A DNA stretch of 64,000 nucleotides from NCBI GenBank assembly GCA_028279365.1, contig JANQNX010000016.1, positions 82,017-146,016 of the forward strand, given 5' to 3'. Positions 1,787 to 48,463 of this stretch are shown in pieces. A program made the position numbers and the translations under genes. The stretch's first letter is position 1. Every line of letters starts with the position of its first letter. This DNA comes from Gammaproteobacteria bacterium (GTDB taxonomy: Bacteria; Pseudomonadota; Gammaproteobacteria; Eutrophobiales; Eutrophobiaceae). Below the pieces are notes generated by a model that was not told where the DNA came from, did no database searches, and saw nothing but the letters and a program-made list of their open reading frames with translations.

Positions 1787-2167
1787 ATGGATAAACAAAT
1801 CATATCAACAAGTAAGGCACCACAAGCAATCGGTACCTATTCTCAAGCGGTTAAGGTTGGCAATACTGTCTATCTATCCGGGCAAATACCGCTGATGCCT
1901 GACACGATGGAATTGATTGAGGGTGATATGCGCGCCCAGATTACCCGAGTGTTCGATAATTTAACTGCCGTCGCCGAGGCCGCAGGCGGGACGTTGGCAG
2001 ATATCAGCAAGCTCAATATCTTTCTCACCGACTTATCTCACTTTCCGCTTGTTAATGAAATCATGGCTGATTATTTTAGCGAACCCTATCCTGCCCGTGC
2101 CGCTGTCGGTGTAGCCAGCTTGCCCAAAGCTGCGCAGGTAGAAATGGACGCCATCATGACGCTGTGA
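1787..2167 (+). CDS. ridA: RidA/YjgF-family reactive enamine/imine deaminase
   Basis: 126-aa product with typical RidA signature ([24 protein letters not shown] ... [21 protein letters not shown]). ATG at 1787 is preceded by AGGGGA RBS. ORF-track start 1763 is likely upstream of the true start. Confidence 0.8.
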
Positions 2168-2179
2168 GATCTGTCATTT

Positions 2180-4276: not shown

Positions 4277-4297
4277 TCAAACAAGCGGAACTAACAA

Positions 4298-7885: not shown

Positions 7886-7909
7886 TTTATGAATTATCGA
7901 TAGCTGTAA

Positions 7910-8947: not shown

Positions 8948-9009
8948 GGATTTCCATAAGTTAGTTTGTTGGTCTGCTAAATCAATTCCCTATGAATAAA
9001 CAATTCAAT

Positions 9010-9083
9010 TGGAGCCCCGAGAGGGAATCGAACCCCCAATAGATGATTACAAATCATCGGTTATACCATTTAACTATCGGGGC
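9010..9083 (-). tRNA. tRNA-Thr (anticodon UGU)
   Basis: Reverse complement folds as a cloverleaf: acceptor GCCCCGA/TCGGGGC, D-arm GTTA-AATGGTA-TAAC, anticodon stem GATGA/TCATC with loop TTTGTAA (anticodon TGT), T-arm GGGGG-TTCGATT-CCCTC, and 3' CCA encoded. Confidence 0.8.
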
Positions 9084-9145
9084 AATTCCCGTTCTAGCCT
9101 GACTTTTTACAAAACAGAACTCGTCTGGCTCAAAATCGGCATATT

Positions 9146-9982
9146 CTAAGGATTTCCCGATGCCATAGCAATTTCGTTGCAAGCGACCGGCACAGCATTA
9201 AATCTGGCTGGGAAGCCGGTAAACAAGTCATTCACATAAGTGGAATTCTGCACGATCATAACATCAAACCAGCGTATCTGCTTTCCGTTTGAGTAAGGTA
9301 CAACAACTGGTTGATAACCTTTCGCCTTTATCTCATTCAAGCGGCGGTTAACTGATGCCTGACTGGAAAACACACCGAGCGAGACGGCATTGAGTAAATC
9401 GCCGGTATTAATCAAGCGCAGATCGTTGACACCTTGTTGCTTCAGATCGCGCATTGCGGCTTCGGCGTCTTGTCTTGATTTTTGCGGCGCCAGATAGACC
9501 CAAAATAGCTGCTTGCCATCTTCTGTAGTGAGACGCTCAGTGTACTTAATGGCACGATTATCCAACCAGCTGGACATCAGTTCAGACTCATTACTATCCG
9601 GGATCGGTCCATAGGTATAACAAACTACCTGCTGTTGTTGTTCTTCAAACGTATCCTCGCCAGGTTCAGCAAATGTCTGTTGCAATACACTATTGTCAAT
9701 TTGCATCATCGATGAATCAGCCAATAAGGTATCTATCATCTTTTCTGTATTTGGATTAAGTTCGATTGGCAACACCGGGTTGGATTGATCGGCATCGCTT
9801 AGCATGGCTTGTCGCGAAGCGGGTTTTTGATCGAGTTCGGCAATCAATGCAAGTTGTTTCGTACCCGGCGGGATTATAATTGAGTTTCTCAAACTCGCTC
9901 GTTCAATCTTCGCGCCGCGGTCTATTTCCCAACCAAGGTAAGCGACATTAGCGATTAACAATAAAATAAATAACCACTTCAT
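9146..9982 (-). CDS. SPOR-domain cell-division protein (DedD/FtsN-like, two C-terminal SPOR repeats)
   Basis: N-terminal TM anchor. C-terminal region matches the SPOR fold (AVSLGVFSSQASVNRRLNEIKAKGYQPVVV). Last gene of a birA-coaX operon. Confidence 0.6.
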   Translation of the reverse strand: MKWLFILLLIANVAYLGWEIDRGAKIERASLRNSIIIPPGTKQLALIAELDQKPASRQAMLSDADQSNPVLPIELNPNTEKMIDTLLADSSMMQIDNSVLQQTFAEPGEDTFEEQQQQVVCYTYGPIPDSNESELMSSWLDNRAIKYTERLTTEDGKQLFWVYLAPQKSRQDAEAAMRDLKQQGVNDLRLINTGDLLNAVSLGVFSSQASVNRRLNEIKAKGYQPVVVPYSNGKQIRWFDVMIVQNSTYVNDLFTGFPARFNAVPVACNEIAMASGNP

Positions 9983-10725
9983 GTCTGATCCTTATGAAGC
10001 AGGCTGAGTCCACGCAATACCAACTGCGGATCGCACTCATGTGGATAGCTTATATGCTGGCTTAAGCGCTGGGTATAGCCGCCGGTTAATACACATGTCA
10101 CCGGGCTGGAAACGGCCTGTTTAAAATCGATAATGGCATGTTCAATGCTCGACACCAATGCCAGGCAGGCACCGTTAGCGATGGCTGCCTGCGTGTTATT
10201 GGCCGGTTTTGCTGAAAAAGAATCGGTCACATCCACCTTGATTTGAGTCGTGCCTCCGATCAGCGATCGTTGCAGTAAATGATTCCCGGGTAAGATATAG
10301 CCGCCCCTGTGTTTGCCACTCGATTCAATAAAATCAATCGTCAATGCTGTACCACAATCAATCACACAAAGATTGGTATTATGTTTTTCCCAGGCCGCGA
10401 CCATCGCTAACCATCGGTCAACCCCCATGCTGGTAAAATCGTCATAGCCGTTTTGTAATTGTTTATACTCTGCACAGACACCCGCCTGCCAGATATCGCA
10501 TTGCCAGACTTTATCAACCACCTGATAAAGCCGGTTAAGTATCTCTTCACCGGCCACGTTCGCGACCAGCACGCGAGTAAGCCTGAGTGCAGGAGAAATA
10601 TGTTCCTGTATTTTTTCTACGAAATTATCAGGCTCGTAGACAAACCAGTTCGCTTTATCGAACACATGTTGATCTTCTATCGCCCAGTTAATACTGGAAT
10701 TACCGATATCAAGTAGTAAGTTCAT
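9979..10725 (-). CDS. coaX: Type III pantothenate kinase
   Basis: MNLLLDIGNSSINWA N-terminus and the GGY... acetate/sugar kinase fold typical of CoaX. Overlaps birA stop. Confidence 0.85.
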   Translation of the reverse strand: MNLLLDIGNSSINWAIEDQHVFDKANWFVYEPDNFVEKIQEHISPALRLTRVLVANVAGEEILNRLYQVVDKVWQCDIWQAGVCAEYKQLQNGYDDFTSMGVDRWLAMVAAWEKHNTNLCVIDCGTALTIDFIESSGKHRGGYILPGNHLLQRSLIGGTTQIKVDVTDSFSAKPANNTQAAIANGACLALVSSIEHAIIDFKQAVSSPVTCVLTGGYTQRLSQHISYPHECDPQLVLRGLSLLHKDQT

Positions 10726-11702
10726 ATCCCCACCATGACGCTCACCTCACCTGACAGGTAGCGCTTTATTTCACCCTGATGCTCAATCAACAGTCGGCCT
10801 TGCTCATCGATGCCTTGTAAGTTGCCTGTAATACTTGAATCTGGTAATTGCAGCGTCGCCTTTTTCCCGTGACAACAATCATAATTACGCCATTCATCCA
10901 GCATTGCCGTTGTATCAGCCGCCGTTGTCATCGACAAGGCTTCAATTAACTGGTTAATCAACATGGCAATGATCACATTACGCGACAAGCGGGTTTCAGT
11001 CTGTTGACAAATATCAGTGATCGGCTGTGCAACGTTTTCTGCAATATTATCTGACATGTCATAGTTTAAACCGATACCAATTACCATCGATAACGGCCCA
11101 CCTGCTTCACCTTTCATCTCCAGCAATACACCACCCAGTTTTTTTCCATCTACCAGAATATCATTTGGCCATTTCAATCCGGCATCGGTAATACCGATTT
11201 CATGCAGGGTTCTGATAATCGCAACACCGGTCACCAGTGACATGATGCTGGTAAAATTGTTTGCGACTTCGACCTTCCAGCTCATCGAAAGATAAATACC
11301 ACTGGCAACAGGTGACAACCAGCTATTGTTTCTTCTGCCTTTGCCTTCGTTTTGATACTCTGCAAGTAACACAATGACGTTTGAGGCATCATGCGTTAAT
11401 ACGCGTGACAGTTCATCATTGGTTGAACCTGTTTCAAATAATATGTTTATTTCACAAGCCTGTGCTTTCGCATGTGAACCCAATAAGTCTTTAATCTGTT
11501 TTTGATCCAGTAATTCAATCTTTTTTTGTAATTGATAACCGCGACCATGTTTGGCATCAATAACCAGTCCCATTTGTTCTATCTTCTTTATCGATTTATT
11601 GATGGCAACACGCGTGACACCCAACTGTTGGGCAAGGGTTTCTCCCGAATGACACTCAGCATCACTCAGGATAGCCAGTAATTGTAAGATTTTTTGCTTC
11701 AT
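10722..11702 (-). CDS. birA: Bifunctional biotin-[acetyl-CoA-carboxylase] ligase / bio operon repressor
   Basis: N-terminal wHTH (SGETLAQQLGVTRVAINKSIKKIE), BPL catalytic core (GKGRRNNSW), and C-terminal SH3-like domain. Confidence 0.85.
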   Translation of the reverse strand: MKQKILQLLAILSDAECHSGETLAQQLGVTRVAINKSIKKIEQMGLVIDAKHGRGYQLQKKIELLDQKQIKDLLGSHAKAQACEINILFETGSTNDELSRVLTHDASNVIVLLAEYQNEGKGRRNNSWLSPVASGIYLSMSWKVEVANNFTSIMSLVTGVAIIRTLHEIGITDAGLKWPNDILVDGKKLGGVLLEMKGEAGGPLSMVIGIGLNYDMSDNIAENVAQPITDICQQTETRLSRNVIIAMLINQLIEALSMTTAADTTAMLDEWRNYDCCHGKKATLQLPDSSITGNLQGIDEQGRLLIEHQGEIKRYLSGEVSVMVGI

Positions 11703-19402: not shown

Positions 19403-20185
19403 ATGGATCCCCTCTTTATCCTCTCCGGCTTTATCGTCGGCTTCGTGGTTGGCATGACTGGCGTTGGCGGCGGCTCACTAATGACACCGATATTGGTGCT
19501 GGGTTTTGGGATCAAACCGGCCATCGCAGTCGGTACCGACCTGCTCTATGCGGCGATGACAAAATCCGGTGGCGTCTTTGTGCATCACAAGCATGGAAAT
19601 ATTCAATGGCGCATCGTCAGCTTGCTCGCGACCGGCAGTATTCCTGCGAGCCTACTCGCAGTGATGTATCTCAAACACCTGGATACAAAGGGCGTAAATT
19701 ACGATCACGTCATCATGACAACACTGAGCGTTGCACTAATTCTGACAGCCGTGTTTTTATTATTACGCAGTTCCATTAAGTCATTCAGTCGACATGAAAA
19801 ATTCGATTTCCTTAAGATCATTCACCGGCGCTATCGTAAACATATTACTATTTTTGCAGGGGCATTGATTGGACTGCTGGTCACCATTTCTTCTGTTGGC
19901 GCTGGTGTCATCGGCGCTGCCTTTTTATTCTTTCTTTACCCTGAACTCAAGACCATCAAAATTGCCGCCACCGATCTGGCTCACGCCGTTCCCATTACCG
20001 CGATTGCCGGACTGGGACACGCACATATCGGTACCGTGGATTACATATTGCTGATAAGCCTGTTGATCGGTTCTCTACCCGGCATCTATCTGGGCAGTCA
20101 CTTTGGAACGGCTCTGCCTGAAAAAGTGATGCGACCCTTATTAGCCACACTACTTTTATTAATTGGTGTTAAGTTAGCCATCTAA
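19403..20185 (+). CDS. TSUP (TauE/SafE) family sulfite/anion exporter
   Basis: About 8 TM helices in two internal repeats with Gly-rich motifs typical of TSUP. Confidence 0.7.
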   Translation: MDPLFILSGFIVGFVVGMTGVGGGSLMTPILVLGFGIKPAIAVGTDLLYAAMTKSGGVFVHHKHGNIQWRIVSLLATGSIPASLLAVMYLKHLDTKGVNYDHVIMTTLSVALILTAVFLLLRSSIKSFSRHEKFDFLKIIHRRYRKHITIFAGALIGLLVTISSVGAGVIGAAFLFFLYPELKTIKIAATDLAHAVPITAIAGLGHAHIGTVDYILLISLLIGSLPGIYLGSHFGTALPEKVMRPLLATLLLLIGVKLAI

Positions 20186-20190
20186 TGAAA

Positions 20191-20219
20191 AAACCCTGCT
20201 TGAGTTTGCAGGGTTTTTG
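20191..20219. terminator. Rho-independent terminator (AAACCCTGC-ttgagtt-GCAGGGTTTTT)
   Basis: GC-rich 9-bp stem followed by a T-run, between convergent genes. Confidence 0.7.
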
Positions 20220-20242
20220 TCGTGAGATTTGCGTTAGTTAAG

Positions 20243-20461
20243 CTAGTGTTCCTTGTACTCCTCAATCAATTTTGACATTCGATCCTTTAACTGTAGTTTT
20301 TCTTTTTTCATATTTTCAAGTTCGAACTCATCAACACTGATATTACCTTCATGCACATCTTTGACTGTTTTCTTCAAATCGTCATGCTTATCAAATAATC
20401 GTCTAAAGTTGCTGTTCTCATTTAATAAGTGTGAAACTATTTCTTGATCGTGAGCAAACAT
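20243..20461 (-). CDS. DUF465 (YdcH-like) small protein
   Basis: 72 aa with heptad-like FRRLFDKHDDLKKTV pattern characteristic of YdcH family. Confidence 0.5.
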   Translation of the reverse strand: MFAHDQEIVSHLLNENSNFRRLFDKHDDLKKTVKDVHEGNISVDEFELENMKKEKLQLKDRMSKLIEEYKEH

Positions 20462-20707
20462 AATGTCTCCCTAGTTGAGTTAATCTTGAACTAATTTACG
20501 TCCTTATTTTTACTGGCTAACACAGTTAAATTTAGACTATCCAGTGACGCTTCGCCAGTAATATATTTCGGCTTGAAAAATACAGACTATAGTCATAACT
20601 CATTGTAAAACCAGGATATTTTTACAATGATAAAAAGGGAGTTTTTTTGCCTTTTAGTACTCTAATATAGTGAAAATGTAACTAAAATAATGTGATAGGG
20701 TGCTTAC

Positions 20708-21652
20708 ATGATAATGCCCGCTAAAAAACGATTACAACTTGGCTTGTCTGTTTTTTTACCGTTGTTACACAGCGTGAGTTTAGCTACTGACTTTAATATC
20801 ACCGAATTTCAGCCGGGCATATTTGTTCATCAAGGCCAGCATGTCAGCTTCGAACATGAAAATCGTGACGATATTGCCAACATTGGTTTTATCGAAGGTG
20901 ATGACTGTATCGCCGTGATTGATACTGGCGGCTCAATCGATATTGGCAAAAAACTAAAACACGCAATCGAAACCATTTCAAAAAAACCTGTCTGTTATGT
21001 GATCAATACGCACGTGCATTTCGATCATGTGTTGGGTAATTATGCATTTGTTAATAACGATACAAAATTTGTTGGTCACAAAATGCTGAAAGACGCCATG
21101 GTGGCTAGCACCGAGTTTTTTCTGGATGAATATGCCAATGAACTAGGTAGTAGCAAACAAACGGAAGATACAAAAAACTTAATCGTACTGCCTGATGTAT
21201 TAGTTGAAGACACACTTGAGATTGATCTTGGCAATCGCAAATTGACCTTAACTGCTCATAAAATAGCACATTCACGCAACGATCTAAGCATACTGGATCA
21301 ACAAACCGGGACATTATGGTTATCCGATCTATTGTTCGTGGATCGTATCCCGGCAATTGAAGGCAAGCTCAAAGGCTGGCTCAGCGTGCTTGATGAAATT
21401 AAGGCCTTGGAACCGAATCATGTCATTCCCGGCCATGGAAACCTGGCACTGTCGGTTGACAAGGCAATGGCGCTGCAACATGCCTATTTAATGGAGGTTC
21501 TCACCGAAACACGCAGCATGATCCAGGACGGCGCGTTCATGGAGGACGTCATTGATAAAGTCGGGCAGGAGACAAAAACACAATGGATTTTGCATGAACA
21601 ACATCATAAACGTAACATCAGCAATGCATTTGTTGAACTGGAGTGGGAGTAG
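20708..21652 (+). CDS. Secreted MBL-fold metallo-hydrolase
   Basis: Signal peptide. HVHFDH (HxHxDH) zinc motif plus downstream His/Asp ligands. Confidence 0.7.
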   Translation: MIMPAKKRLQLGLSVFLPLLHSVSLATDFNITEFQPGIFVHQGQHVSFEHENRDDIANIGFIEGDDCIAVIDTGGSIDIGKKLKHAIETISKKPVCYVINTHVHFDHVLGNYAFVNNDTKFVGHKMLKDAMVASTEFFLDEYANELGSSKQTEDTKNLIVLPDVLVEDTLEIDLGNRKLTLTAHKIAHSRNDLSILDQQTGTLWLSDLLFVDRIPAIEGKLKGWLSVLDEIKALEPNHVIPGHGNLALSVDKAMALQHAYLMEVLTETRSMIQDGAFMEDVIDKVGQETKTQWILHEQHHKRNISNAFVELEWE

Positions 21653-36399: not shown

Positions 36400-36768
36400 C
36401 TATTTATCTACCGTTACCGGCACGTATTCCACTTCGCGATAAGATGTTGTCAGTGTAATCCAGACCCCATAGCTGGTAAGCGCAAACAACACACCGACTA
36501 AATCAAACAGCGTGAAGTATTGCGTTTTATCCATGACCATATAAAGGATCACAAACAGTATCCCCATTGTGCCCAAACCAAAGCGGATGAGCGGCGGTAA
36601 AAAATCTCCCATCATTTGCATGGAAGGATGGGTCGCCACTGGTTGCATATCCGGATGCTGAGTTTTATAGAACTCTCTACTTTGTATTACTCGCTTACGT
36701 TGATTAAACGCGGAATATAATATCCAGCTACCAGCGACAAATAAGATAATTCCGACCATATATTGCAT
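36400..36768 (-). CDS. Small 3-TM membrane protein downstream of crtB (unknown function)
   Basis: ORF with three hydrophobic helices. It sits where tspO/crtK lies in Rhodobacter but is not TspO-like. Confidence 0.4.
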   Translation of the reverse strand: MQYMVGIILFVAGSWILYSAFNQRKRVIQSREFYKTQHPDMQPVATHPSMQMMGDFLPPLIRFGLGTMGILFVILYMVMDKTQYFTLFDLVGVLFALTSYGVWITLTTSYREVEYVPVTVDK

Positions 36769-36795: not shown

Positions 36796-37857
36796 CTAAT
36801 TAACACTCTCTACCTGAACGATACGATCTTTCTTTTCCAGTCGTTCAAATATATTTATAACATTCAAGAATTGTTCTTTGACGTTCCACCAGGGAATCGG
36901 TTTCCAATTATCTTCATCGTTCAGGACAGAGCCGCTGTTATTAGCCAGCATTGCACTGATCAAAAACCAGGAAGCGTCGTAGTGTTTACATTCATCATGA
37001 CTTTGCAACTTGCCTGACTTGACAACCGAATGCGTTAGTAACACAACTTTGCGTGATGTCGGCACAACCGTACGAGTAGAAACAGAATCCCTGCCTTCTC
37101 TTGATAACTGACAACCGATCTCGCGATAGATGGCAGCGGCGGCCAATATTGCTGGTCGACACGCTCGCGGTAACATTGAAATACCATATTCAGCCTGTTG
37201 ATACAGATCGTCGGCGGTATCTATCACACGCTCAATCACCTTACCCAAAGCAGGACTAAAATGCGGATCCTGTAACCATTCATCCGGATCGATCTGTTCT
37301 TCTCGTAACCATTCGCGGGGTAAATAGAGTCTGCCGTTTTCGGCATCTTCACCCACATCCCGCGCAATATTGGTGAGTTGCATGGCCATACCAAGTTCAC
37401 AGGCTCTGGCAATGGCATCCGCAGAACGCGCACCCATGATCGCTGCCATCATGGCACCCACCGTTCCCGCTACTCGCGCGGAATAATCATGCAAGTCTTC
37501 GATGCTTTCATATTCCTTGCCAATAACATCCCAGGCAAAGCCTTCAAGTAAGCCTTCCGGAAAAGCACGAGGTATTGAGAATTGCTTTACGACGCTGGCA
37601 AAGGCGCGATCTTCCGGATGGATAGAATCCACATTGGAATAGATTTGATTTAATCTTGAATAGAGTTCTGTGAGTGCGGCATGCGGGTCGATAGCGTTGT
37701 CAATCGCATCATCGGCAACACGACAAAAACCGTAAAGTGACGCGGCAGGTTTCCTGATATCCGGCGGTAATAATAATGAAGCAGTATAAAAAGATAATGA
37801 ACCGCCTCGAAGTCGATTCAGACAGACACGAATATCAGTTTGCTGTTCTGTTCCCAT
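36796..37857 (-). CDS. crtB: Phytoene synthase
   Basis: Squalene/phytoene synthase motifs (YCYRVAGTVG-like ARVAGTVGAMM; DxxxD-type regions). Confidence 0.85.
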   Translation of the reverse strand: MGTEQQTDIRVCLNRLRGGSLSFYTASLLLPPDIRKPAASLYGFCRVADDAIDNAIDPHAALTELYSRLNQIYSNVDSIHPEDRAFASVVKQFSIPRAFPEGLLEGFAWDVIGKEYESIEDLHDYSARVAGTVGAMMAAIMGARSADAIARACELGMAMQLTNIARDVGEDAENGRLYLPREWLREEQIDPDEWLQDPHFSPALGKVIERVIDTADDLYQQAEYGISMLPRACRPAILAAAAIYREIGCQLSREGRDSVSTRTVVPTSRKVVLLTHSVVKSGKLQSHDECKHYDASWFLISAMLANNSGSVLNDEDNWKPIPWWNVKEQFLNVINIFERLEKKDRIVQVESVN

Positions 37858-38028: not shown

Positions 38029-39159
38029 ATGACAACACATGTACTGTTAACTTTGGGGCGCATGCCGAAAGGGCTAGACCTTGCTCGCGGCTTCGCCGCA
38101 GCAGGTTGTGACGTCTATGTCGCCGATCCGCATGCGAATCATATTTCGCGCTATTCCAATTCCGTAAAAGAATGCTTCACCGTAACAGCACCGAATGACT
38201 CGGCAGATGATTTCGTAGATGACTTACTTAATATTGTTAAAGACAAGGCGATTGATATCGTCGTGCCTATTTCAGAAGAATCGGTTTACACCGCCAAACT
38301 AAAAGTCAGGCTACCAGAACACGTCATATTTTTCGGACCCGGTTTTGATGTCGCGCGTCGACTGCACGATAAATATGAATTTAATCGTTATTTAGTAGAG
38401 TTAAATTTACCGGCGCCGGAAACTGCATTATTAGGCACCGATGAAGCCAATGAACTGGTGCAGCAACACGATGTTATCGTCAAACCCATTCACGCTTCAG
38501 CCGGCATCGATATCATCACCGTAAATCAAGGTGATAGTTTACCCTCAGCGACCAACCGCCCTTCTCTTGTGCAACAACAATTACGTGGCAGATTGTTAAC
38601 CAGTTTATCGGTGGCAAAAGATGGACAGTGTTTACAGACCGGCATCTACGAAGGGCGTATCTTCACCGGTAGCGTTGCCATTGCCTTTGAACGTGTTAAT
38701 GATGCTGAAGTCGTTCAAGAGTTTGCGAAACGGTTTATTGAAGATAGTCATTACACCGGATTTATTTCATTCGATGTGTTTATTGAAAATGATAACAACG
38801 CCTATGCGATTGAATGTAATCCAAGGCTTACCAGCGGCATTCATTTATTTAATACAACGGATGTTGCCAGGGCCATTATGAGTGAGGCAGTGCATCCAGA
38901 AATCGCTTTACGTGAAAGGCTCTCTTTTCAACACTTTTGGCCAGCCTTAGGGACAACAGAGATGTCATTAATCAAAGGAGGTCCGTTTAAACATAACCTG
39001 AAGCACTTTTTAAAAAGCTCAGATGTGACCTGGTCTCGACACGATATCAAACCCTTTTTAATGATGAATTTTTGTTCTGGCGAGATTTTAAAAAAATATT
39101 TCTTTGACAAGATGTCACTGGGTGAAGCAAGTATTACCGATATCGAATGGCGCGAATAA
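38029..39159 (+). CDS. ATP-grasp family carboxylate-amine ligase (unknown substrate)
   Basis: ATP-grasp fold features: Rossmann-like N-terminus, central KPxxxSAG-type region, and C-terminal E-C-N-P-R metal/ATP motif (AIECNPRLTSGIHLF). Confidence 0.6.
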   Translation: MTTHVLLTLGRMPKGLDLARGFAAAGCDVYVADPHANHISRYSNSVKECFTVTAPNDSADDFVDDLLNIVKDKAIDIVVPISEESVYTAKLKVRLPEHVIFFGPGFDVARRLHDKYEFNRYLVELNLPAPETALLGTDEANELVQQHDVIVKPIHASAGIDIITVNQGDSLPSATNRPSLVQQQLRGRLLTSLSVAKDGQCLQTGIYEGRIFTGSVAIAFERVNDAEVVQEFAKRFIEDSHYTGFISFDVFIENDNNAYAIECNPRLTSGIHLFNTTDVARAIMSEAVHPEIALRERLSFQHFWPALGTTEMSLIKGGPFKHNLKHFLKSSDVTWSRHDIKPFLMMNFCSGEILKKYFFDKMSLGEASITDIEWRE

Positions 39160-40539
39160 TTACTGACGTTTTTTCACTCGACATTGAATCTCATGCTTGG
39201 GTCGCGTTGTGAGTCTGGCAACCGGCTTCACTTTTTCTTTATCGAACAATTCAAAATCAAACGCACGAACAATTGACGCGAGGATTAAGGTACTTTCAAT
39301 CTGTGCGAACGTCGCACCGGCGCAGACTCTCGGGCCTTGTCCGAAGGGAATATAGCTTCCTCTGACTATGTTTCCCTCTCGTTCCTGACTAAAACGATCC
39401 GGATCAAACAGTTCCGGTTCATCCCAAAGTTTTCTATGCCGATGAATCGCCCACGGTGCAATCATAATCATCGCGCCGCGTTTAATCTTCTGTTTCCCTA
39501 TCTTGCAACTCTCGGCAGCGACTCTGGGGATAAACGTTAGCGGCGGATACAACCGTAAGGTTTCGCGAAACACATTACGCGTATAAGGCAACTTTTTAAT
39601 ATCATCAAAGCCAATCTTGTTTTCGCCAACAGCCTGATCCACTTCATCGCGAATGCGCTGTGCCACCTCCGGTCTTGATGCAATAATAAAAAACGCCCAG
39701 GTTAAGACACTAGCCGTCGTCTCATGCCCAGCGAGAAAAAACACGCCTAACTGATCGATCAATTCATCCCGGGTAAACCCTTCACCGGTGTTTTCATCGC
39801 GCGCATCGACAACGGCGCGAGCCAGGCCATCTGCCGCTGCTTCATTAACAATCGATTCATCAATTAATACGCCCAGCTGTTCGCGAATACGTTTACATGC
39901 TGCCAACACTTCATCGGTTTGTTTGATATCGCTCCAGGCCTTACCAAATATCAATTGCGATAGCTTGACGTTAGACACACTGCGCTCAAATAAAGAGAAA
40001 CTTTCAAAGACATCCATCGCTACGTCGGATTCCAATGATTTGGAAAACATCGTGCGACAGATAATATCGGCCGTCAGATGGCTCATAGAAAAATCCAGCG
40101 AGAAGGTTTCACCTGATTCACTACGTTTTGTCAGCGTGTCTTGAAACTGATCGACTGCAGCCTGCATAGCATGAAAGGCATTCCCCAAACGGATAAAGGA
40201 AAACGCCGGTTCCACCATCTTGCGTTGGCGCTGCCAGGTTTCACCATCAGACACAAATAAAGAATCCCCGACCAACGGCGCCAACGCGCCTTTCATCAAA
40301 TCATTCTTTGGAAAAATATCAATCGCATCCGTCATCACATGGCGCGTGTATTCCGGTTTATTGACAATAATGATCGAGCGACGTGAATAGCCGAGCGTGC
40401 CGATATCGACTTCATAGGCGTCCTTCGGTAGCAGGCTCAGCAAATCGCCTTCACCACTGGCAATACTGCGCACCAATCCCATTAGTGGTGATAGTGGTTT
40501 CGGGCAAGGCGGCCGGAATAATGACTCAGCTGCGTTCAA
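39160..40539 (-). CDS. Cytochrome P450 monooxygenase
   Basis: Heme-ligand loop FGQGPRVCAGATFA. I-helix AGHETT. K-helix ETLRLYPP (ExxR). Confidence 0.9.
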   Translation of the reverse strand: MNAAESLFRPPCPKPLSPLMGLVRSIASGEGDLLSLLPKDAYEVDIGTLGYSRRSIIIVNKPEYTRHVMTDAIDIFPKNDLMKGALAPLVGDSLFVSDGETWQRQRKMVEPAFSFIRLGNAFHAMQAAVDQFQDTLTKRSESGETFSLDFSMSHLTADIICRTMFSKSLESDVAMDVFESFSLFERSVSNVKLSQLIFGKAWSDIKQTDEVLAACKRIREQLGVLIDESIVNEAAADGLARAVVDARDENTGEGFTRDELIDQLGVFFLAGHETTASVLTWAFFIIASRPEVAQRIRDEVDQAVGENKIGFDDIKKLPYTRNVFRETLRLYPPLTFIPRVAAESCKIGKQKIKRGAMIMIAPWAIHRHRKLWDEPELFDPDRFSQEREGNIVRGSYIPFGQGPRVCAGATFAQIESTLILASIVRAFDFELFDKEKVKPVARLTTRPKHEIQCRVKKRQ

Positions 40540-40599
40540 CTTAGCTCCTGATTATTTTTATCTTAAGGTCTGTACACTCAGCCATAACTTAGCAATACT

Positions 40600-41331
40600 T
40601 TGACTATGTTCATAGTGCACGCGTTTGAGACTCTTGTCATGATGCATATCGTGACGGGCAGTGTCGGCCTTGTGAGTTTATGGATACCGCTGCTGACTAA
40701 AAAAGGGAATAAACTGCATAAAAAAAGCGGCCTGATCTTTGTTTATTCCATGCTGGCAACCGGTACGATTGCAACCGGTATCAGTACCTGTACTCTACTC
40801 GCACCCGTGGACACGCATCCACATTTACTCAATCACCCTGACTTTGGTGATGGGCAAACAATCAGAGTGATCTTCGGCTGGATGATGCTATATCTCGCCT
40901 TCCTGACAATCAACCTCGCCTGGTATGGCTGGCGTTGCGTAACAACGAAAAACGATAGAAAAGCCAACCGCCGATGGGAGCAGAATATCTCTCAAGTCAT
41001 ACTATTAATACTGTCACTCAATGCCATGTACCATGGCTTGGTGAATGATGTGTTGCTGGTCGCCGGGATTTCCTTTGTCGGTATTGCCACCGTCGCGACG
41101 AACTTATGGTTTCTCTATAAACCTAAAGCCAAACCTATCGACTGGTTATTGGAACATATTAAAGGATTAGTCGGCGCAGGGATTTCAGTCTACACGGCCT
41201 TTCTTGCATTTGGTGCAGTCAGATTATTACCGGAAGCGGCATTAACACCTTTTCTTTGGTCAATACCTTTAATTACAGGATTAACAATAATTATTTACCA
41301 GCAATATCAAGTAAAACGTAAAACTGCATAA
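40600..41331 (+). CDS. Polytopic membrane protein (6 predicted TM, unknown function)
   Basis: Hydrophobic segments throughout. Divergent from the P450 gene with a 60-bp gap. Confidence 0.45.
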   Translation: MTMFIVHAFETLVMMHIVTGSVGLVSLWIPLLTKKGNKLHKKSGLIFVYSMLATGTIATGISTCTLLAPVDTHPHLLNHPDFGDGQTIRVIFGWMMLYLAFLTINLAWYGWRCVTTKNDRKANRRWEQNISQVILLILSLNAMYHGLVNDVLLVAGISFVGIATVATNLWFLYKPKAKPIDWLLEHIKGLVGAGISVYTAFLAFGAVRLLPEAALTPFLWSIPLITGLTIIIYQQYQVKRKTA

Positions 41332-41373
41332 TATTATGTAAATAGTACTTATATTTTCCAAAAAAATTAGTAA

Positions 41374-43665
41374 ATGGCCGACTACGATTTTAAAGCATTA
41401 TCATTTTGGGAATTCGAGCAAATTTCAAGGGATTTGCTTAGAAATGCGTTAAATATTGATTTTGAATCATTCAAGTCAGGTAAAGATCAAGGCATAGATC
41501 TTAGACATGCATCTGACAATAAAGGGGAAATCATAGCTCAATGCAAACATTATGCTAATTCAACTTATTCGGATCTTAAAAATACAATTAAGAAAGAAAA
41601 AGTTAAAATAGATAAATTAAAACCCAATAGATACATACTAATAACATCGTTAGGTCTGACGACAAAAAACAAAGAAGAAATAAAGTCAATATTAGGTAAA
41701 CACCTTATCTATACAAAAGATATCGTTACAAGAGAGACTCTAAATGGTTGGCTTGTTGATTTTCCGAAAATTGAAAGATCATATATAAAATTATGGGCTA
41801 CTACTGGAGTAGCTTTAAATCAGATTATAAAAAGTCGAATATTCAATTATTCTCTCTCTCAAATTGAAGAATTAGAAACAAAAATTAAGTACTTTGTAAA
41901 AAATCAATCGTTCGACGAATCAATCAAAATATTACAAGCTCAAAAGTTTTGTATTATTGCTGGCATACCCGGAATAGGAAAAACAACATTAGCTGAAATG
42001 CTATTAGTAGATTTTTTACGTCGAGATTTTGAGCCAATAGTAATCACTAGTGATATTGAAGATGCATTTGACGTCTTCGATAAGGATGCAAAGAGAATAT
42101 ATTATTATGACGATTTTCTTGGTCAGACTGGTCTGGAACAAAAATTAAATAAAAACGAAGATGCCAGAATCGTAGAGTTCTGCAAGCTATGTAGAAAAAC
42201 AAAAAACTCTTATTTCATACTAACAACAAGAGAATATATTTTAAATCAGGCAAAGGCCACATATGAGAAACTGGAAAAATCAGGAATAGATAAAAGAAAA
42301 TGTGTGATTGATCTGAAAAGCTATAGTGATCTTGAAAAAAGCAAAGTTCTTTATAATCACATTTACCATAGAAAACTACCTGACAAATATAAAAAAGCTC
42401 TTTTAAAAGATCATGGATATTTAAAAATAATTGATCATAAATCTTTTAATCCTAGAGTCATAGAATGGATGGTAGATTCTGAAATGATTTCAGATATTCC
42501 GCCCGAAGATTACCTAGACAGCTTTATTTATAGATTAAACAATCCTTCTGCAATCTGGTCACATGCATTTAACAATCAAATATCTGACCATGCGAGACAC
42601 TTAGTTATGAGCTTGCTTACGTGTTCTAGATTTGCTTATTTGAGTGATTGTAAAAAGGTGTTTGAGAATTTACGGCATTATTTATCTAATAAGTACAATT
42701 TCGGAATGACTGCAAATGAATTTAATACTGCTTTAAAAGAAGTCGAAGGAAACTTTATTAGCGTAAGTTTAGTAAACAATCAGCAAATCATACATTTCCA
42801 TAACCCTTCTATCATCGATTATGTGTCATATTATTTATCTGAAAATACTGAAATAGTACAAGATATTATTTCTTCGTTTACTCACTTTGATCAATTCATT
42901 AATTTATGGAATATATTTACAAATTTTGAAAAAAACCCATTGCTGCATGAAGATGTTAAAGACATATTTATGTCTTGTTTAGCTAAACATTATGGTACTG
43001 ATGGAATCAATCTTACAAGATATAACAATATTATCGGCAAACCAATTTACGCATATTCATCTTCAAGCATTGAGATCCAAGTCATTATTGCATTGAATCT
43101 TGAACTAGATAACTACAATCACTCTTTTATTCAAAATACAAAAGAAATAGTTGACGATTATTTTACTAACATGGGTATAGAAGTAATTTGGTCACGAGTG
43201 AAGCAATTATTAATTGATCTGGAAAATAAAAAAGAAGAACTGCAACTAAACATAGACAACTATCTTATAAAGTCCGTCAATTTACTATCAGAAAACTTAA
43301 CTCAAATAAATGATTACAAACAGTTAGCAGATATATCTAAAATATCAAATGTAACAAAAGATATTATTGATGAAAAAATACAAATGATTGAACAAGATTT
43401 AATTGCTGGGTTTGAAGATGAAGTCGAATTCCATAGAAATGATAATGATGTAAGTGAATTACAAGATTGTCTTAGTGATATAGAAGATATTGAAATTATA
43501 TTTGATTTTAATTTATATGAACAGAAAGAATATATAGAAACTATTCTTAATGAATTAGGCGATCCAGATGAAATTTATAATGATGAATACAGTAATATAT
43601 CAACTAAATCTAGCACAAACACTAACACTTCTGAGATTATAGATATATTTAATACGCTAGAGTAA
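41374..43665 (+). CDS. Mrr-like PD-(D/E)xK nuclease domain fused to STAND/NACHT-like P-loop NTPase (candidate antiphage protein)
   Basis: N-terminus FEQISRDLLRNALNIDFESFKSGKDQGIDLRHAS ... IIAQCKHY parallels the Mrr catalytic core (GDGGIDL ... QCKRY). Walker A IIAGIPGIGKTT and Walker B IYYYDDFLG. C-terminal helical/repeat region of about 360 aa. Confidence 0.65.
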   Translation: MADYDFKALSFWEFEQISRDLLRNALNIDFESFKSGKDQGIDLRHASDNKGEIIAQCKHYANSTYSDLKNTIKKEKVKIDKLKPNRYILITSLGLTTKNKEEIKSILGKHLIYTKDIVTRETLNGWLVDFPKIERSYIKLWATTGVALNQIIKSRIFNYSLSQIEELETKIKYFVKNQSFDESIKILQAQKFCIIAGIPGIGKTTLAEMLLVDFLRRDFEPIVITSDIEDAFDVFDKDAKRIYYYDDFLGQTGLEQKLNKNEDARIVEFCKLCRKTKNSYFILTTREYILNQAKATYEKLEKSGIDKRKCVIDLKSYSDLEKSKVLYNHIYHRKLPDKYKKALLKDHGYLKIIDHKSFNPRVIEWMVDSEMISDIPPEDYLDSFIYRLNNPSAIWSHAFNNQISDHARHLVMSLLTCSRFAYLSDCKKVFENLRHYLSNKYNFGMTANEFNTALKEVEGNFISVSLVNNQQIIHFHNPSIIDYVSYYLSENTEIVQDIISSFTHFDQFINLWNIFTNFEKNPLLHEDVKDIFMSCLAKHYGTDGINLTRYNNIIGKPIYAYSSSSIEIQVIIALNLELDNYNHSFIQNTKEIVDDYFTNMGIEVIWSRVKQLLIDLENKKEELQLNIDNYLIKSVNLLSENLTQINDYKQLADISKISNVTKDIIDEKIQMIEQDLIAGFEDEVEFHRNDNDVSELQDCLSDIEDIEIIFDFNLYEQKEYIETILNELGDPDEIYNDEYSNISTKSSTNTNTSEIIDIFNTLE

Positions 43666-43909
43666 AGATTTTCATTACCATATTAGCTAATAACTTCTAC
43701 CTCTTTCTCATTTAGCCCCAGTAAGCAGTGTAGCTCATTCGCAAAACCGAGACCCGCTTCGGCATGGATATTAAATATGCTCTACGCCCATCTCTCGTAA
43801 ATCCCCTTTTTAATAAAACCAAAAGGATCAGTATCGATTGAAAAGCAGTTCATTTGATCAAATTGGGAATTTAATTTTTAATCAACGTGTAGCTATCTAT
43901 AGAAAACCA

Positions 43910-44278
43910 TCACTGCCACTGACTAGCATCATTACATCTTGGATCGGATATTATTTTTTTAGATAATGATGCTTCATAAGCGAGGCCAGCGCATTGACCA
44001 ACCTTTGTTCCCCATAGTGTGCCGTCTTTCGGCTGTATCATGACATCAGGGATTTGTTCTTCAACCTCCTTTAAACATATCCGTGTTGCTGATGCGGCGG
44101 CTTCTTCGCATTCAACGGCAGTCACATCAAAACACTGCCTGAAATATTGTTCGGAATTGCAAAACGCGGCGGGTAGTGCGCTCTTCATCCCGGTAATCCA
44201 ATCCTCTTTTTTCACTTCCTGAGAATGAACAGTGATAGAAAACAAAACTAATAAAAATAAGACGATATTTTTCATCAT
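43910..44278 (-). CDS. Small secreted Cys-rich protein (6 Cys) of unknown function
   Basis: Signal peptide MMKNIVLFLLVLFSITVHSQ plus six cysteines in about 100 aa. Confidence 0.4.
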   Translation of the reverse strand: MMKNIVLFLLVLFSITVHSQEVKKEDWITGMKSALPAAFCNSEQYFRQCFDVTAVECEEAAASATRICLKEVEEQIPDVMIQPKDGTLWGTKVGQCAGLAYEASLSKKIISDPRCNDASQWQ

Positions 44279-44326
44279 AGCGAATCCTTCATATTAAGAG
44301 TTATAGTTTAGGAACAGCTCGTTTTG

Positions 44327-45382
44327 TTATTCTCTGACCTTTGGTTCACCTGTCTCAGCATCAATCCTGTCAAGAGATGGTCCCTCATATTGAGCTAAAA
44401 TTAAATCTACAACAGCTTCGCCGTATTTAGCAAACCAGAAGTCCCCCATCTGTTTTAGTTTTTTAATATTTGACTGACTAATATCATCCATGGCGTCATC
44501 AGGTGGATTAGGTAAGCCAGGCTGTTTTTTCATTTCAGTATTAACACGAATATAATTGCCTTGCTTTAAAAGGGTATACGCTTGATAGGCGACAACTCTT
44601 TCATCTGTTAACAAGTCAAGTATATGACCTTTTGTAAACCATTCTAAAGCGCCCCATTTTTGTGACTCTGGACCATTTATTTTTCTGGTGCGATATCCCG
44701 TTCCCACAGACAATACGCGTAAATCCTGAATGTGTTCAGTTGACCAAATCTTGATGGCTTAGGCAATTACACACATTGTAGGATTATTAGCTGTCACCCC
44801 TCCATCCACCAGCCAAAATGCACTCTCAATATTTTTCATTGCTAATTCTTTGGTGGGGAAATAGGTTGGTGCAGCACTGGACGCATCTGCTACCTGCCAA
44901 GACTGTAACTTGCGATGTGTCTTATCGGTTGATTTAATAACGACAGGTTTTCGGCGTTCTATTCCATAGGTTACAACCAAAACATGTTTGTTGTTTGCTA
45001 CATTGCTTAACTTTGCTGAACCCAGTTTCTGTTCCAGTAATTTTGACTTTCCTTTTGCTTCATATTTTGGCGCATTGATACCATCCCATTCAAACCAGCC
45101 TCTATTATCGGAAAATATTTTTTTTGCATTTTGATAGTTATATAGCTTATTAATATCCGCCATCGCCATATCAGTCGTAGCTAATGCAAGCGCGATAATA
45201 CTTCCCGTACTGGTTCCTGCATAAAAATGCACACAATCGCGTAAACTTTTATTATGGTCAGTTTTAAGCTTGTTCTCAACATGAGTAAGAAACTGGGTCG
45301 TAGCAGCTCCGCGTATACCACCGCCATCCAATGAAAGAATTAATTTTGACATATTACCTCCTTGTTTAAATAATCTTAGCAA
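44327..45382 (-). pseudogene. Patatin-like phospholipase interrupted by one in-frame TAA (44759-44761)
   Basis: Upstream part carries the oxyanion hole DGGGIRG, the nucleophile GTSTG and the catalytic DGG. Translation through the stop continues in frame (...PTMCVIA*AIKIWSTEHIQDLRVLSVGTGYR...) into the conserved patatin C-terminus (SVGTG). Both ORFs share frame (starts 45382 and 44713, both 1 mod 3). Confidence 0.7.
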
Positions 45383-45589
45383 TAAGATTTTAAGTGATCG
45401 CCATAATATAACATTGCATAATCAATTTATGGCTTTTCACTAACAGATTAATACTAACTGGTTATAAATCAACTAAATCATCATCGAACTGATGTAAAGT
45501 AATGCCAGTTATATAAACAGAAATTCGGGTTTTTAAATTATGTGCAGTATTAAAATGAGTAAAAATCTTTGCACTATACATAAAAGCAT

Positions 45590-47095
45590 TTACAGAAATA
45601 CATCAGGATCGGGTGCAACTTCATCCAGTATCTTCGCTGATGAAATCACGCCGGGTACGCCGGCACCGGGATGTGTACCGGCACCCACCAAAAACAGATT
45701 TTCCAGTTCTTCGCTTTTATTATGTGGTCGAAACCAGGCGCTTTGTAATAGCTGCGGCTCCAGACCAAACGCGGCACCATTAACCGATAACAAGCGCGTT
45801 TCAAAATCCTTGGGTGTCATGACGAATGATGTGGTCAGATGTTTGCCTAGCTCGGGCAAAACAGTTTGTTCTAATCTCTCTTCAATCGCCTTACGATAGG
45901 TTTCGCTATGCACCTCCCAATCGACGCCGCTTTCCAGATGTGGCACTGGTGATAATACATAAAACGCATCATGCCCTTCCGGCGCCAGACTTTTATCCGT
46001 CGCCGTGGGACGATGTAGATATAAACTAAAATCTTCTGCGAGATGTTTATGTTTAAAGATATCTTTTAATAAGCCTTCATATCTCGGACCAAGCAGGATT
46101 AAGTGGTGGTACACATCGTCATATTGTTTGTCAGTTCCAAAATACCAGACGAATAAACTCATGGAGTAACGCGCACGTTTCAGTTTTTTGGGTTTCCAGC
46201 GTTTTGCCATTCGATTACCAAGTAGATGTTTATAGGTCCAGGCCGAATCGGCATTGGATACAACAATATCCGCGTCTATTTGTTCACCATCTTTCAATTT
46301 TACACCGGTCGCACGGTCCCCTTCATGCGTAATGCACTTCACTTCTGAGTTATATCTAATCTTGCCGCCCAAACCGTCAATCAATCCAACCATGCCTTTT
46401 ACCAAGGACCCCATGCCACCCATGGCATAGTGCACACCAAACTTACGTTCAAGATGCGCAATCAGGCAATAGTAAGCCGTCGTCGTCATCGGATTACCGC
46501 CAATCAATAATGGATGAAAACTAAACACGATTCGTAAAGCCGGATCGGTAAAATAATCACACACAGTTTTAAATACCGTACGATGTCCACCCAGTCTTAC
46601 CAAATCCGGCGCGGTACTTAGAGTAAACGGCAAGCTATGAAACGGTTGCGCGGCCAATTCTTCAAACGCGACTTCGTAAATATCACCACTAAGTTTGATA
46701 AAACGATTGAACCCATCCAGATCGTCGGGGTTAAACTTACAGACTTCTTCGCGCATTTTTTCGATATCGCCGCTATAACTAAACACGCGACCATCATCAA
46801 ACCGAATTTGATAAAACGGCTCCATAGGTATCAACTCGACATCGTCCGAGACTTTCTTGCCGCAGAGTTCCCACAGTTCATCAAACACAAACGGCGCCGT
46901 GACAATCGTTGGGCCGCGATCGAAGATATAACCGTCACGTTCTTCGACAAAGGCGCGACCGCCCGGCGCTTCCAGTCTTTCAATCACGGTGACAGCATAA
47001 CCTCTGGCGCCAAGTCGAATCGCTGCGGCCAAACCGCCAAAGCCGCTACCTATGATGACAGCATGGGCTTTGTTTTTAGAACTTTCATTTCCCAT
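45590..47095 (-). CDS. crtI: Phytoene desaturase
   Basis: N-terminal FAD fold AVIIGSGFGGLAAAIRL ... PGGRAFV and C-terminal CrtI-family signature (GAGTHPGAGVPGV). Confidence 0.88.
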   Translation of the reverse strand: MGNESSKNKAHAVIIGSGFGGLAAAIRLGARGYAVTVIERLEAPGGRAFVEERDGYIFDRGPTIVTAPFVFDELWELCGKKVSDDVELIPMEPFYQIRFDDGRVFSYSGDIEKMREEVCKFNPDDLDGFNRFIKLSGDIYEVAFEELAAQPFHSLPFTLSTAPDLVRLGGHRTVFKTVCDYFTDPALRIVFSFHPLLIGGNPMTTTAYYCLIAHLERKFGVHYAMGGMGSLVKGMVGLIDGLGGKIRYNSEVKCITHEGDRATGVKLKDGEQIDADIVVSNADSAWTYKHLLGNRMAKRWKPKKLKRARYSMSLFVWYFGTDKQYDDVYHHLILLGPRYEGLLKDIFKHKHLAEDFSLYLHRPTATDKSLAPEGHDAFYVLSPVPHLESGVDWEVHSETYRKAIEERLEQTVLPELGKHLTTSFVMTPKDFETRLLSVNGAAFGLEPQLLQSAWFRPHNKSEELENLFLVGAGTHPGAGVPGVISSAKILDEVAPDPDVFL

Positions 47096-47173: not shown

Positions 47174-48463
47174 TTATTCAAGATGTTTTACACTCTCTCT
47201 GATACGTCTAATGCCAAATGCAACCGCAATCGCAACTAACGGAATACTCGCTGCTGTGATTATGTAGCCTTTCTCAAGTAACCCGGCACCTTCTGCACCT
47301 TTTGTTAAATAACTGACTAGACCAACAATATAATAAGTAATGGCGGCGATAGATAATCCTTCAACTGTTGTTTGAAGACGAAGCTGTAATTCAGCACGCC
47401 GATTCATTGAGTGCAATACTTTTTGATTTTGTTCACGTCGGGTCATTTCAACGCGAGTTGATAATAATTGTGTTGCTCGAGCCACCCGGGTTGATAAAGA
47501 TTCCTGGCGGTTTGCGACCATTCGGCAGGTGTCTATCGCTGGAACCAGGCGTCGTTCTGTAAACTCACCAAAGGTCTGCAAGCCTCTTATACGTTGTTCG
47601 CGTAATTCCTGGATTCGTCTCTCGACCAACGAGTAATAAGCGTTGGCAGCGCTAAACCGATAGTGATGTTGCGAGTGATGGCTTTCTATCTCTGCTTGTA
47701 GACTGGTTAACCTCTCAAGCAGATTTGACTCTTTTTCTCCTGATTGCGTTAAAGCATGAGTAATCTCAGCCAATTCCTGTTCGCTTTCGTTGACATGAGG
47801 CGATAGTGTTCGTGTCAATGGCAAGGTCAATAAAGCCAGCATACGATAAGTGTCAACCTCGAGTAATCGCTGGATCATTCTGCCCGCCTGTCTGGCTTTC
47901 ATACCGTGGTCTGCCACCCACAAGCGACCAAAACCATTTTCATGAATTTTAAAATCGGTTAAGGCAGTCGCCACACCGCCGTCAATGGCCGACCCTACCA
48001 GCACATTACCGTTAAATCGTTTTTTTGAGAGGCTTTCATAGTCATTTGGTGGGTTTTGTCGACGTACCAATGCCACATTTGTGGCCACCAGTATTCTACC
48101 GGGTAAAGCACTAAGCCAGTCCGGTTCAAGTTGATTAATAATGGGGGAAACAAAGGCATCATCACCAGTCATCGGACTGATAAATAGATAGCGTGTAAAT
48201 TCAGTATGGCGCTCCCACTTCAATCTGAAACTGCCAAAATCTGCACTATGATGTTTAATCTTTAAATGGGGTAGTTTTTGATCGTACTTCTCGGCCAACA
48301 TGGCGACAGGTTCAATATCTTTGATAGATAAATCCCAATCCGTATGCAACGCAATATAGGAAAGTTTTAACGGTGCTTGTAGTGGTTCAGAAGGTCTGGC
48401 ATGTACCTCATTATTTAATTCCAAACGCAGTTCATGATCAGTAGGTAAAGCAATTATCGACAT
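47174..48463 (-). CDS. Conserved hypothetical protein with C-terminal 2-TM anchor (DUF3422-like?), between bchO and crtI
   Basis: ORF with a soluble domain of about 330 aa followed by two hydrophobic helices. Family name uncertain. Confidence 0.4.
   Translation of the reverse strand: MSIIALPTDHELRLELNNEVHARPSEPLQAPLKLSYIALHTDWDLSIKDIEPVAMLAEKYDQKLPHLKIKHHSADFGSFRLKWERHTEFTRYLFISPMTGDDAFVSPIINQLEPDWLSALPGRILVATNVALVRRQNPPNDYESLSKKRFNGNVLVGSAIDGGVATALTDFKIHENGFGRLWVADHGMKARQAGRMIQRLLEVDTYRMLALLTLPLTRTLSPHVNESEQELAEITHALTQSGEKESNLLERLTSLQAEIESHHSQHHYRFSAANAYYSLVERRIQELREQRIRGLQTFGEFTERRLVPAIDTCRMVANRQESLSTRVARATQLLSTRVEMTRREQNQKVLHSMNRRAELQLRLQTTVEGLSIAAITYYIVGLVSYLTKGAEGAGLLEKGYIITAASIPLVAIAVAFGIRRIRESVKHLE

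Follow-up and report, generated by a model that had tools for sequence, protein, structure and literature searches.

A small composite accessory patch, probably built by at least two events, at a convergent junction in a gammaproteobacterial photosynthesis gene cluster

The 64,000-nucleotide stretch of gammaproteobacterial DNA analyzed here (contig JANQNX010000016.1, positions 82,017 to 146,016; hereafter the window) carries a photosynthesis gene cluster in which an island of 4258 bp (41332-45589), foreign in composition, lies between the carotenoid gene crtI and a conserved membrane-protein gene. We consider it likely that the region is a small composite accessory patch, built by at least two separate events at a permissive convergent junction. 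Where the island lies, three relatives have an empty junction and a fourth has other cargo, and the relic of a native Kef-type antiporter gene (kef) separates its two foreign parts, each of distinct composition, namely one AT-rich gene and one milder segment. An earlier, sequence-only reading of this DNA had described an AT-rich insertion of about 4.3 kb; the stretch is indeed confined to this genome and of foreign composition, and the boundaries given were correct to within about 10 bp. Its view that a single insertion had taken place did not hold, given the native kef relic in the middle of the island and the unlike composition of the two parts.

Composition, relatives and the native relic

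The native baseline was taken from 49 genes outside the island, which have a mean GC content of 0.459 (standard deviation 0.019) and a mean GC content at third codon positions (GC3) of 0.450 (standard deviation 0.037). Against 1-kb bins of 0.40-0.50 elsewhere in the window, with a single exception of 0.374 at 20001-21000, the bins covering 41001-44000 reach only 0.30-0.33. In a 400-bp profile the fall begins at about 41200, the lowest values (0.24-0.31) extend until about 43800, and values of 0.32-0.42 then follow to 45600. More specifically, an open reading frame (ORF) of 763 amino acids at 41374-43665 (+) has a GC of 0.288 (z -8.9) and a GC3 of 0.221 (z -6.2), and its tetranucleotide usage in 2-kb windows gives an L1 distance of z = +20 and a GC-normalized correlation of 0.26 (z -11). 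The two halves of a disrupted patatin gene are at GC 0.39 (z about -3.6) and GC3 0.30-0.31 (z about -4), while an NttA-like ORF is borderline, with GC 0.42 (z -2.0) and GC3 0.38 (z -1.8); in the same kind of 2-kb windows the patatin/NttA half reaches a tetranucleotide z of about 2.6 (L1) and -2 (GC-normalized) only. Sliding GC and tetranucleotides both confirm the sharply low GC of the stretch, with three compositional classes in the region, so that the anomaly is real yet uneven.

The nearest relatives, with CrtI identities of 75-80%, were found by protein search and contig retrieval, and CrtI scans of genome and metagenome contigs returned clusters at 53-63% identity, plus one 2-kb contig at 81%. 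In three of the four close relatives crtI abuts the membrane-protein gene, with a gap of 14 bp in L087 (NCBI metagenome-assembled genome GCA_039028675.1; CrtI 79%), 16 bp in L088 (CrtI 75%) and 15 bp in L090/L091 (CrtI 80%). In the fourth, L085/L086 (CrtI 80%), the junction holds a gene for a 539-amino-acid Kef-type antiporter (domains Na_H_Exchanger and TrkA_N) on the crtI strand, followed by 26 bp. None of the three island genes is present in the loci of L085, L087, L088 and L090/L091, and the alignment with related clusters that the sequence-only reading had proposed as a check thus bears out the insertion itself.

The same comparison changes the picture of the crtI-crtB unit, which the island had been thought to split. 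The gene order in L087 is bchI-bchD-bchO-crtI, the membrane-protein gene on the opposite strand, P450, ATP-grasp and crtB, and it is the same in L088 and L090/L091. The trio of membrane-protein, P450 and ATP-grasp genes, whose orthologues are 72-86%, 72-77% and 60-66% identical, separates crtI from crtB in all four close relatives, with alternating strands; CrtB, at 47-56% identity to the relatives, is less conserved than the trio. The crtI-crtB split is ancestral in the lineage, and a contiguous crtIB is absent from this genome and from its four close relatives. The expectation that the two genes are normally contiguous is correct for more distant loci, in 50 of 61 of which (those with enough downstream DNA) crtB directly follows crtI, the remainder having a convergent crtD (5) or another arrangement (6), but it fails in precisely this lineage. 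In the window crtB (36796-37857) and crtI are both on the minus strand and 7732 bp apart, rather than the 8.5 kb or so first given, and between them, read from crtB to crtI, lie the ATP-grasp gene (38029-39159, +), the P450 gene (39160-40539, -), the membrane-protein gene (+), the 763-amino-acid gene (+), the gene for the 122-amino-acid NttA-like protein (-) and the patatin gene (-).

The native left flank, at 40600-41331 (+), encodes a multi-pass membrane protein of 243 amino acids with no significant Pfam family and a native GC of 0.443, and its stop codon (41329-41331) is the left edge of the island. On the right, an AT-rich spacer of 237 bp (45353-45589, -; GC 0.27) runs from the crtI stop to the patatin start and forms the island edge; the crtI-kef spacer of L085 does not resemble it. 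The native right flank is crtI itself (phytoene desaturase by Pfam; 45590-47095, -; GC 0.466). The island therefore sits where the 3' ends of crtI and the membrane-protein gene converge, and no operon is broken.

Evidence for the composite nature of the island comes from the 244-bp spacer between the 763-amino-acid gene and the NttA-like gene, which holds the 3' relic of a Kef-type Na+/H+ antiporter gene, about its last 38 codons (43695-43809, -). By blastn, positions 13073-13188 of L085 match window positions 43808-43695 at 78% over 116 nt (E 2.8e-22). By tblastn, residues 513-539 of the L085 Kef protein match 43775-43695 (-) at 81% identity (E 1.8e-8), and residues 501-511 align immediately upstream in a different frame. 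The relic is frameshifted by a 2-nt deletion, stop codons lie upstream of it, and its translation reads ...KGDLREMGVEH / FNIHAEAGLGFANELHCLLGLNEKEVEV as compared with ...ADLKELGVEHTFNIYAEAGLGFANELHCFLDLNGKEAE* in L085. It lies on the crtI strand, matching the orientation in L085, and the ancestor therefore had crtI, kef and then the convergent membrane-protein gene. The kef gene of L085 (11572-13191) is native in composition (GC 0.543, with about 0.52 for its contig), so the slot accepts ordinary as well as foreign-looking genes.

No integrase or transposase was found among all ORFs of at least 60 amino acids in 41332-45589, as the sequence-only reading had stated; no tRNA lies in or beside the island, the only one of the window being at 9010-9083, and Rfam gave no match in or near the island at E <= 1. 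A search of 40500-46500 for direct and inverted repeats flanking the island returned only short chance-level matches, with none significant at the compositional boundaries. The scan for promoters and terminators gave nothing beyond background, and the spacer at 43660-43915, when folded, showed no structure (z = 0.49). Searches of plasmid and phage DNA with the island revealed no donor, their sole match being the patatin gene, at 66%, on a Photobacterium replicon. Five window proteins, tested as exact sequences, are all singletons at 90% identity among about 15 billion sequences; therefore no close genome exists.

The motif CATAATATWA (CATAATAT(T/A)A) had been placed near 41333 and near 45415 and proposed as the remnant of a target-site duplication. 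Its actual sites are 41327-41336 and 45402-45411, that is 2 sites with 0.62 expected, a count equaled by 3 of 100 shuffles, and the first site, being near-palindromic, was counted on both strands. This first CATAATATTA site shares bases with the stop codon (TAA) of the native membrane-protein gene, and the second is found some 180 bp into the island, so that we rejected the motif as a target-site duplication. A 6-bp ATATTA found at both ends of the NTPase cassette (41331-41336 and 43680-43685) was likewise rejected as a duplication, since it is expected by chance in such AT-rich DNA.

The three genes of the island

Pfam and PADLOC searches upheld the gene identities proposed from the letters of the sequence, namely CrtI, CrtB, P450, ATP-grasp, a defense-like NTPase, a Cys-rich secreted-type ORF and patatin. 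The NTPase is the product of the 763-amino-acid gene, and its layout consists of an N-terminal Mrr-type PD-(D/E)xK nuclease (Pfam Mrr_cat, residues 9-108, E 2.7e-6), a central nSTAND3 P-loop NTPase (Pfam nSTAND3, residues 174-332, E 7.5e-53) and a C-terminal helical region. Over nearly its whole length it matches the PADLOC family PDC-S73 (E 3.6e-156, 520 bits, residues 1-759 on profile positions 1-749 of 752). More than 4,400 homologues, spread over many phyla, share these two domains, and the nearest is 48% identical. Among 41 aligned homologues, D42, Q56 and K58 of the Mrr domain (the D...QxK motif) are invariant and E15 is nearly so, and the Walker A (G197-K203, with G197, P199, G200, G202 and K203) and Walker B (D246/D247) residues are invariant as well. 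From about residue 500 on, consensus is lost over most alignment columns, a divergence that fits, as expected, a putative diversifying sensor.

The AlphaFold2 model of the protein (predicted local distance difference test score, 83.9) is mostly helical in its C-terminal part, and its best Foldseek matches are EfAvs5 (9jap, E 4.5e-8), Avs4 with phage portal (8dgf, E 2.8e-7), the AVAST5 filament (9nc9) and human SAMD9. The sequence search of this protein against PDB returned nothing useful, and the fold search alone was informative. Homologues at 46-48% identity are lone genes whose neighbors include MazEF, HicAB and HipA toxin systems, an AAA_21 ATPase, a kinase, a WYL regulator and HsdM; their GC, like that of the 763-amino-acid gene, is below that of the flanking DNA. 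Members of the family occur on 54 plasmids, of which 31 are conjugative, as well as in 3 phage records. Upstream of the gene lies a 42-bp spacer (41332-41373, +) with a GC of 0.14, and the leader (41332-41376) is AT-rich, without a recognizable Shine-Dalgarno sequence: ccaaaaaaattagtaaATG. Such a leader may point to a donor that uses leaders of this kind, or to poor expression in this host.

By analogy with known Avs proteins, the 763-amino-acid protein is probably a candidate abortive-infection sensor of the Avs-like STAND type. Recognition of a phage protein by its variable C-terminal domain would lead the nSTAND3 module to oligomerize in a nucleotide-dependent manner, and the Mrr-type nuclease would then cut DNA, so that the infection is aborted. 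This reading rests on domain content, motifs, fold and neighborhoods, from which the activity is inferred.

The second gene (43910-44278, -) encodes an NttA-like protein of 122 amino acids, which matches Pfam NttA (PF24275) with an E of 8.7e-14 and 52.1 bits, above the gathering cut-off of 27, and aligns with L. pneumophila NttA (PDB 6xtt, E 1.3e-4), conserved Cys positions included. It has six Cys and, as read by eye, a signal-peptide-like N-terminus. AAGGA is found upstream of the gene.

The third gene, a probable patatin-like phospholipase pseudogene (44327-45352, -), would encode 341 amino acids if unbroken and matches Pfam Patatin (PF01734) with an E of 3.4e-24. Its frame is open for 352 codons (341 from the ATG used by homologues) except for one TAA at 44759-44761 (codon 198). 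The sequence-only reading had called this gene disrupted, and the frame is indeed broken, but by this single in-frame stop and not by a frameshift, the gene being otherwise intact, including the catalytic GTSTG and DGG motifs and a strong GGAGG ribosome-binding site upstream. The TAA replaces a Glu (IAEA) that is near-invariant (at least 90%) in ten intact homologues, and the simplest change is therefore GAA to TAA. Since such a change would have inactivated the gene later, patatin is probably not under selection here. Intact homologues of 341 amino acids are 81-82% identical, and named ones, at 64-71%, come mostly from marine Gammaproteobacteria (Halioxenophilus, Microbulbifer, Teredinibacter, Alteromonas, Paraglaciecola, Vibrio and Photobacterium). 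Judged from its sequence, the gene belongs, as an orphan, to a conserved family of marine Gammaproteobacteria and is predicted to be inactivated by one nonsense change. Its GC3 of about 0.30, as compared with 0.45 in the host and 0.56-0.57 in homologues, favors a lower-GC donor.

We also considered whether this patatin is an effector of CBASS. PADLOC models of CBASS phospholipase effectors match its N-terminal half (E 9.8e-46), but NCBIfam CBASS_lipase gives 164.2 bits, under the cut-off of 200, and a plant patatin scores nearly as well (7.6e-25) as the CapV structures, which are the best PDB matches (1e-27); both assignments, CBASS effector and CapV, were rejected. No cyclase (CD-NTase) gene is present in the window, nor beside the 80-81% identical homologues in L080, L081-L084 and L089, and in these three neighborhoods the homologues stand alone among ordinary metabolic genes. 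No defense link of patatin appeared in any context examined. As no NttA-like gene adjoins the patatin homologues in the same loci, patatin and the NttA-like gene are not a conserved pair.

Proposed history and alternatives

The ancestor would have carried a Kef-type antiporter gene between crtI and the membrane-protein gene. In one event, the 5' 1.5 kb of kef together with the crtI-kef spacer would have been replaced by the patatin/NttA-like segment of about 1.8 kb (about 43813-45589), after which a 115-nt relic of the kef 3' end would alone have remained. In another event, an AT-rich single-gene cassette of about 2.4 kb (41332 to about 43690) would have entered the short spacer from the kef stop to the membrane-gene stop, bringing the 763-amino-acid gene with about 42 bp upstream, that is the spacer of GC 0.14, and about 25-30 bp downstream. 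With no recombinase or repeat remaining from either event, the incoming DNA may be inferred to have entered by illegitimate or micro-homology recombination. An insertion at a convergent junction breaks no promoter or operon, which plausibly explains why this site is variable. More tentatively, and with somewhat less than even confidence, the 763-amino-acid protein may be a working member of a new-type Avs family, with the nSTAND3/SAMD9-like core of Avs5, Avs6 and Avs9, an Mrr-type DNA nuclease as effector and a phage protein as its trigger, and the crtI/membrane-gene junction may be a recurrent cargo slot.

Several observations weigh against these proposals. The patatin/NttA half is just mildly atypical (tetranucleotide z about 2.6), the best named relatives of patatin are probably of the host's own class, which makes a move within the same genome conceivable, and the TAA of patatin may stem from an error in sequencing or in the consensus. 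In the collections searched no relative exceeded about 80% CrtI identity, and for this reason the order of events, their timing and the exact breakpoints rest on a single kef-bearing comparator, L085. Concerning defense, the TM-scores of the Foldseek matches are low (0.19-0.27), though the E-values reach 4.5e-8; low TM-scores are frequent for multi-domain proteins in different conformations. The 763-amino-acid protein matched no PADLOC AVAST model at E <= 0.01, and a literature search found no paper demonstrating phage defense by any PDC-S73 member.

Could the stretch instead be a single 4.3-kb mobile element that arrived in one step, split crtIB and left target-site duplications? The whole stretch is missing from three relatives, GC is reduced throughout and the motif occurs twice, near both ends, but the native kef relic in the middle contradicts such an event and the two halves differ greatly in composition. 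Moreover, the motif is not significant and its sites are misplaced, terminal repeats, integrase and transposase are lacking, and the crtIB split was already present in the lineage, so that we regard this explanation as very unlikely. Quite unlikely, although a little less so, is that the region is ancestral, the relatives having lost it by deletion, and that its low GC reflects gene-specific bias or relaxed selection. Three independent clean deletions down to a spacer of 14-16 bp would be required, a GC3 of 0.22 (z -6.2) and a tetranucleotide z of -11 in the NTPase gene are beyond what protein composition explains, the nearest homologue of this NTPase is 48% identical and found in unrelated contexts, and patatin homologues occur in four different, unrelated neighborhoods. 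Such a history does account for kef, which is common to L085, so that part of the junction content is ancestral, and it fits both the near-native composition of the NttA-like gene and the marine gammaproteobacterial origin of the closest named relatives of patatin.

An assembly artefact, in which foreign reads were wrongly joined into the contig, has to be weighed as well, since metagenome bins can be chimeric and the sequence comes from one 169-kb contig of which no collection has a second copy. Yet both flanks continue the syntenic cluster in correct order and orientation, a lineage-appropriate kef relic lies between the foreign parts, and four false joins within 4.3 kb would be needed, which leaves this explanation extremely improbable. 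We give equally little credence to a role of the three genes alongside the carotenoid and photosynthesis genes, for example a lipase and a secreted protein that would remodel the photosynthetic membrane. Their location inside the cluster, with patatin and the NttA-like gene downstream of crtI on the same strand, is what speaks for it; the genes are, however, absent from all related clusters, patatin is probably inactivated and its homologues never adjoin photosynthesis genes, and the NTPase family is tied to defense islands and plasmids. In summary, a composite patch assembled in at least two steps around a native kef relic is the reading that we favor.

Outside the island, a few other features of the locus were recorded. 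The photosynthesis cluster begins at about 23779 (pufM). The left end of the window (1-11702) holds spoT, recG, ubiC, ubiA, coaX, birA and tRNA-Thr and is ordinary chromosome, and this gene order presumably indicates a gammaproteobacterial chromosome, not a plasmid. The next-lowest GC bin (20001-21000, 0.374) corresponds to a 520-bp intergenic stretch (20186-20707) between a TauE-family gene and a metallo-beta-lactamase-fold gene, outside the photosynthesis cluster. The convergent crtC/crtB junction (523 bp) holds an ORF for a 122-amino-acid membrane protein (36400-36768, -) of native composition, and the same junction in the relatives measures 140-150 bp, with ORFs of 41-47 amino acids and no homologue of this one; here a second convergent junction has been filled in a lineage-specific way, on a smaller scale. 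A DUF3422 gene (47174-48463, -) lies between bchO and crtI; it is also found in L085/L086, L090/L091, L051 and an alphaproteobacterial cluster (L005, 56% identity) and is absent from L087 and L088, so that it appears to be a recurrent, optional cluster-associated gene. L051, the 2-kb metagenome contig with crtI at 81%, has no downstream DNA and ends in an inverted crtI fragment at 1886-2062, which is probably an assembly artefact of that contig.

The trio next to crtI, outside the island, may merit more attention than the island. Its genes also adjoin crtI and crtD in a cluster at 63% identity (L001). The trio could be an unrecognized carotenoid-tailoring module, and a literature search found no paper describing a P450/ATP-grasp module in photosynthesis clusters.

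Significance and comparison with known systems

The case shows foreign genes accumulating in a conserved cluster without damage, at a convergent-gene junction, with one cargo replacing another and leaving a datable relic. It adds one more nuclease-STAND defense candidate, from an uncultured-type marine phototroph lineage without a close sequenced relative. For annotation, the crtI/crtB split is to be taken as normal in this lineage, and a CBASS-effector label is inappropriate for the patatin. Photosynthesis gene clusters are thought to transfer horizontally; for this reason, if the junction is truly a cargo slot, defense genes could travel with phototrophy. As a whole, this is an ordinary kind of accessory-gene patch, and current views of defense islands and photosynthesis clusters are unchanged.

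As compared with genomic islands and integrative elements, the region shares the atypical composition, the absence from relatives and the cargo of defense and accessory genes. It differs in being very small, in lacking an integrase, a tRNA target and flanking repeats, and in its origin from at least two events around a native relic.

The 763-amino-acid protein has the general features of antiviral STAND proteins, with a predicted nSTAND3 NTPase, an N-terminal effector carrying the catalytic residues and a variable C-terminal domain. It resembles PDC-S73, itself a family of computational candidates, in its full-length match to the hidden Markov model, in the two Pfam domains that more than 100 listed homologues also carry, in being a stand-alone gene and in having homologues in settings like defense islands; in contrast, it is 48% identical to its nearest relative and sits in a photosynthesis gene cluster, not in a defense island. 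In Avs5 proteins nSTAND3 follows a SIR2 effector (doi 10.1101/2025.07.08.663546), the sensor of Avs5 groups with SAMD9, and the SAMD9-like Avs5, Avs6 and Avs9 differ mainly in the effector, which is SIR2, PNP or AlbA_2 (PMC13581612, PMC12680541). Our protein is like these in its nSTAND3 module (Avs5), in the effector-NTPase-sensor layout and in its best fold matches, while its effector is an Mrr-type PD-(D/E)xK nuclease, not one of those three. It has no SIR2 domain and no AVAST type 5 match, and shares with Avs5 the nSTAND3 core and the overall fold only. With Avs4, whose effector is an Mrr-like nuclease and which senses the phage portal, it has in common an N-terminal nuclease fused to a STAND NTPase and, by analogy, an expected action in which ligand-induced oligomerization would activate the nuclease; at about 1,540 amino acids, Avs4 has roughly double the length and another sensor, and no match to PDB chains was found at the sequence level.

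The patatin shares its fold and the GxSxG and DGG motifs with CapV, the cGAMP-activated patatin-like phospholipase of CBASS, and differs from it by the premature stop, by the lack of a cyclase neighbor and by belonging to an unusually conserved family (64-82%, marine Gammaproteobacteria). Finally, the NttA-like protein resembles NttA, a type II secretion substrate of L. pneumophila, in its Pfam match, similar size and signal-peptide-like N-terminus, but it is a remote relative (E 1.3e-4) and occurs in a free-living phototroph.

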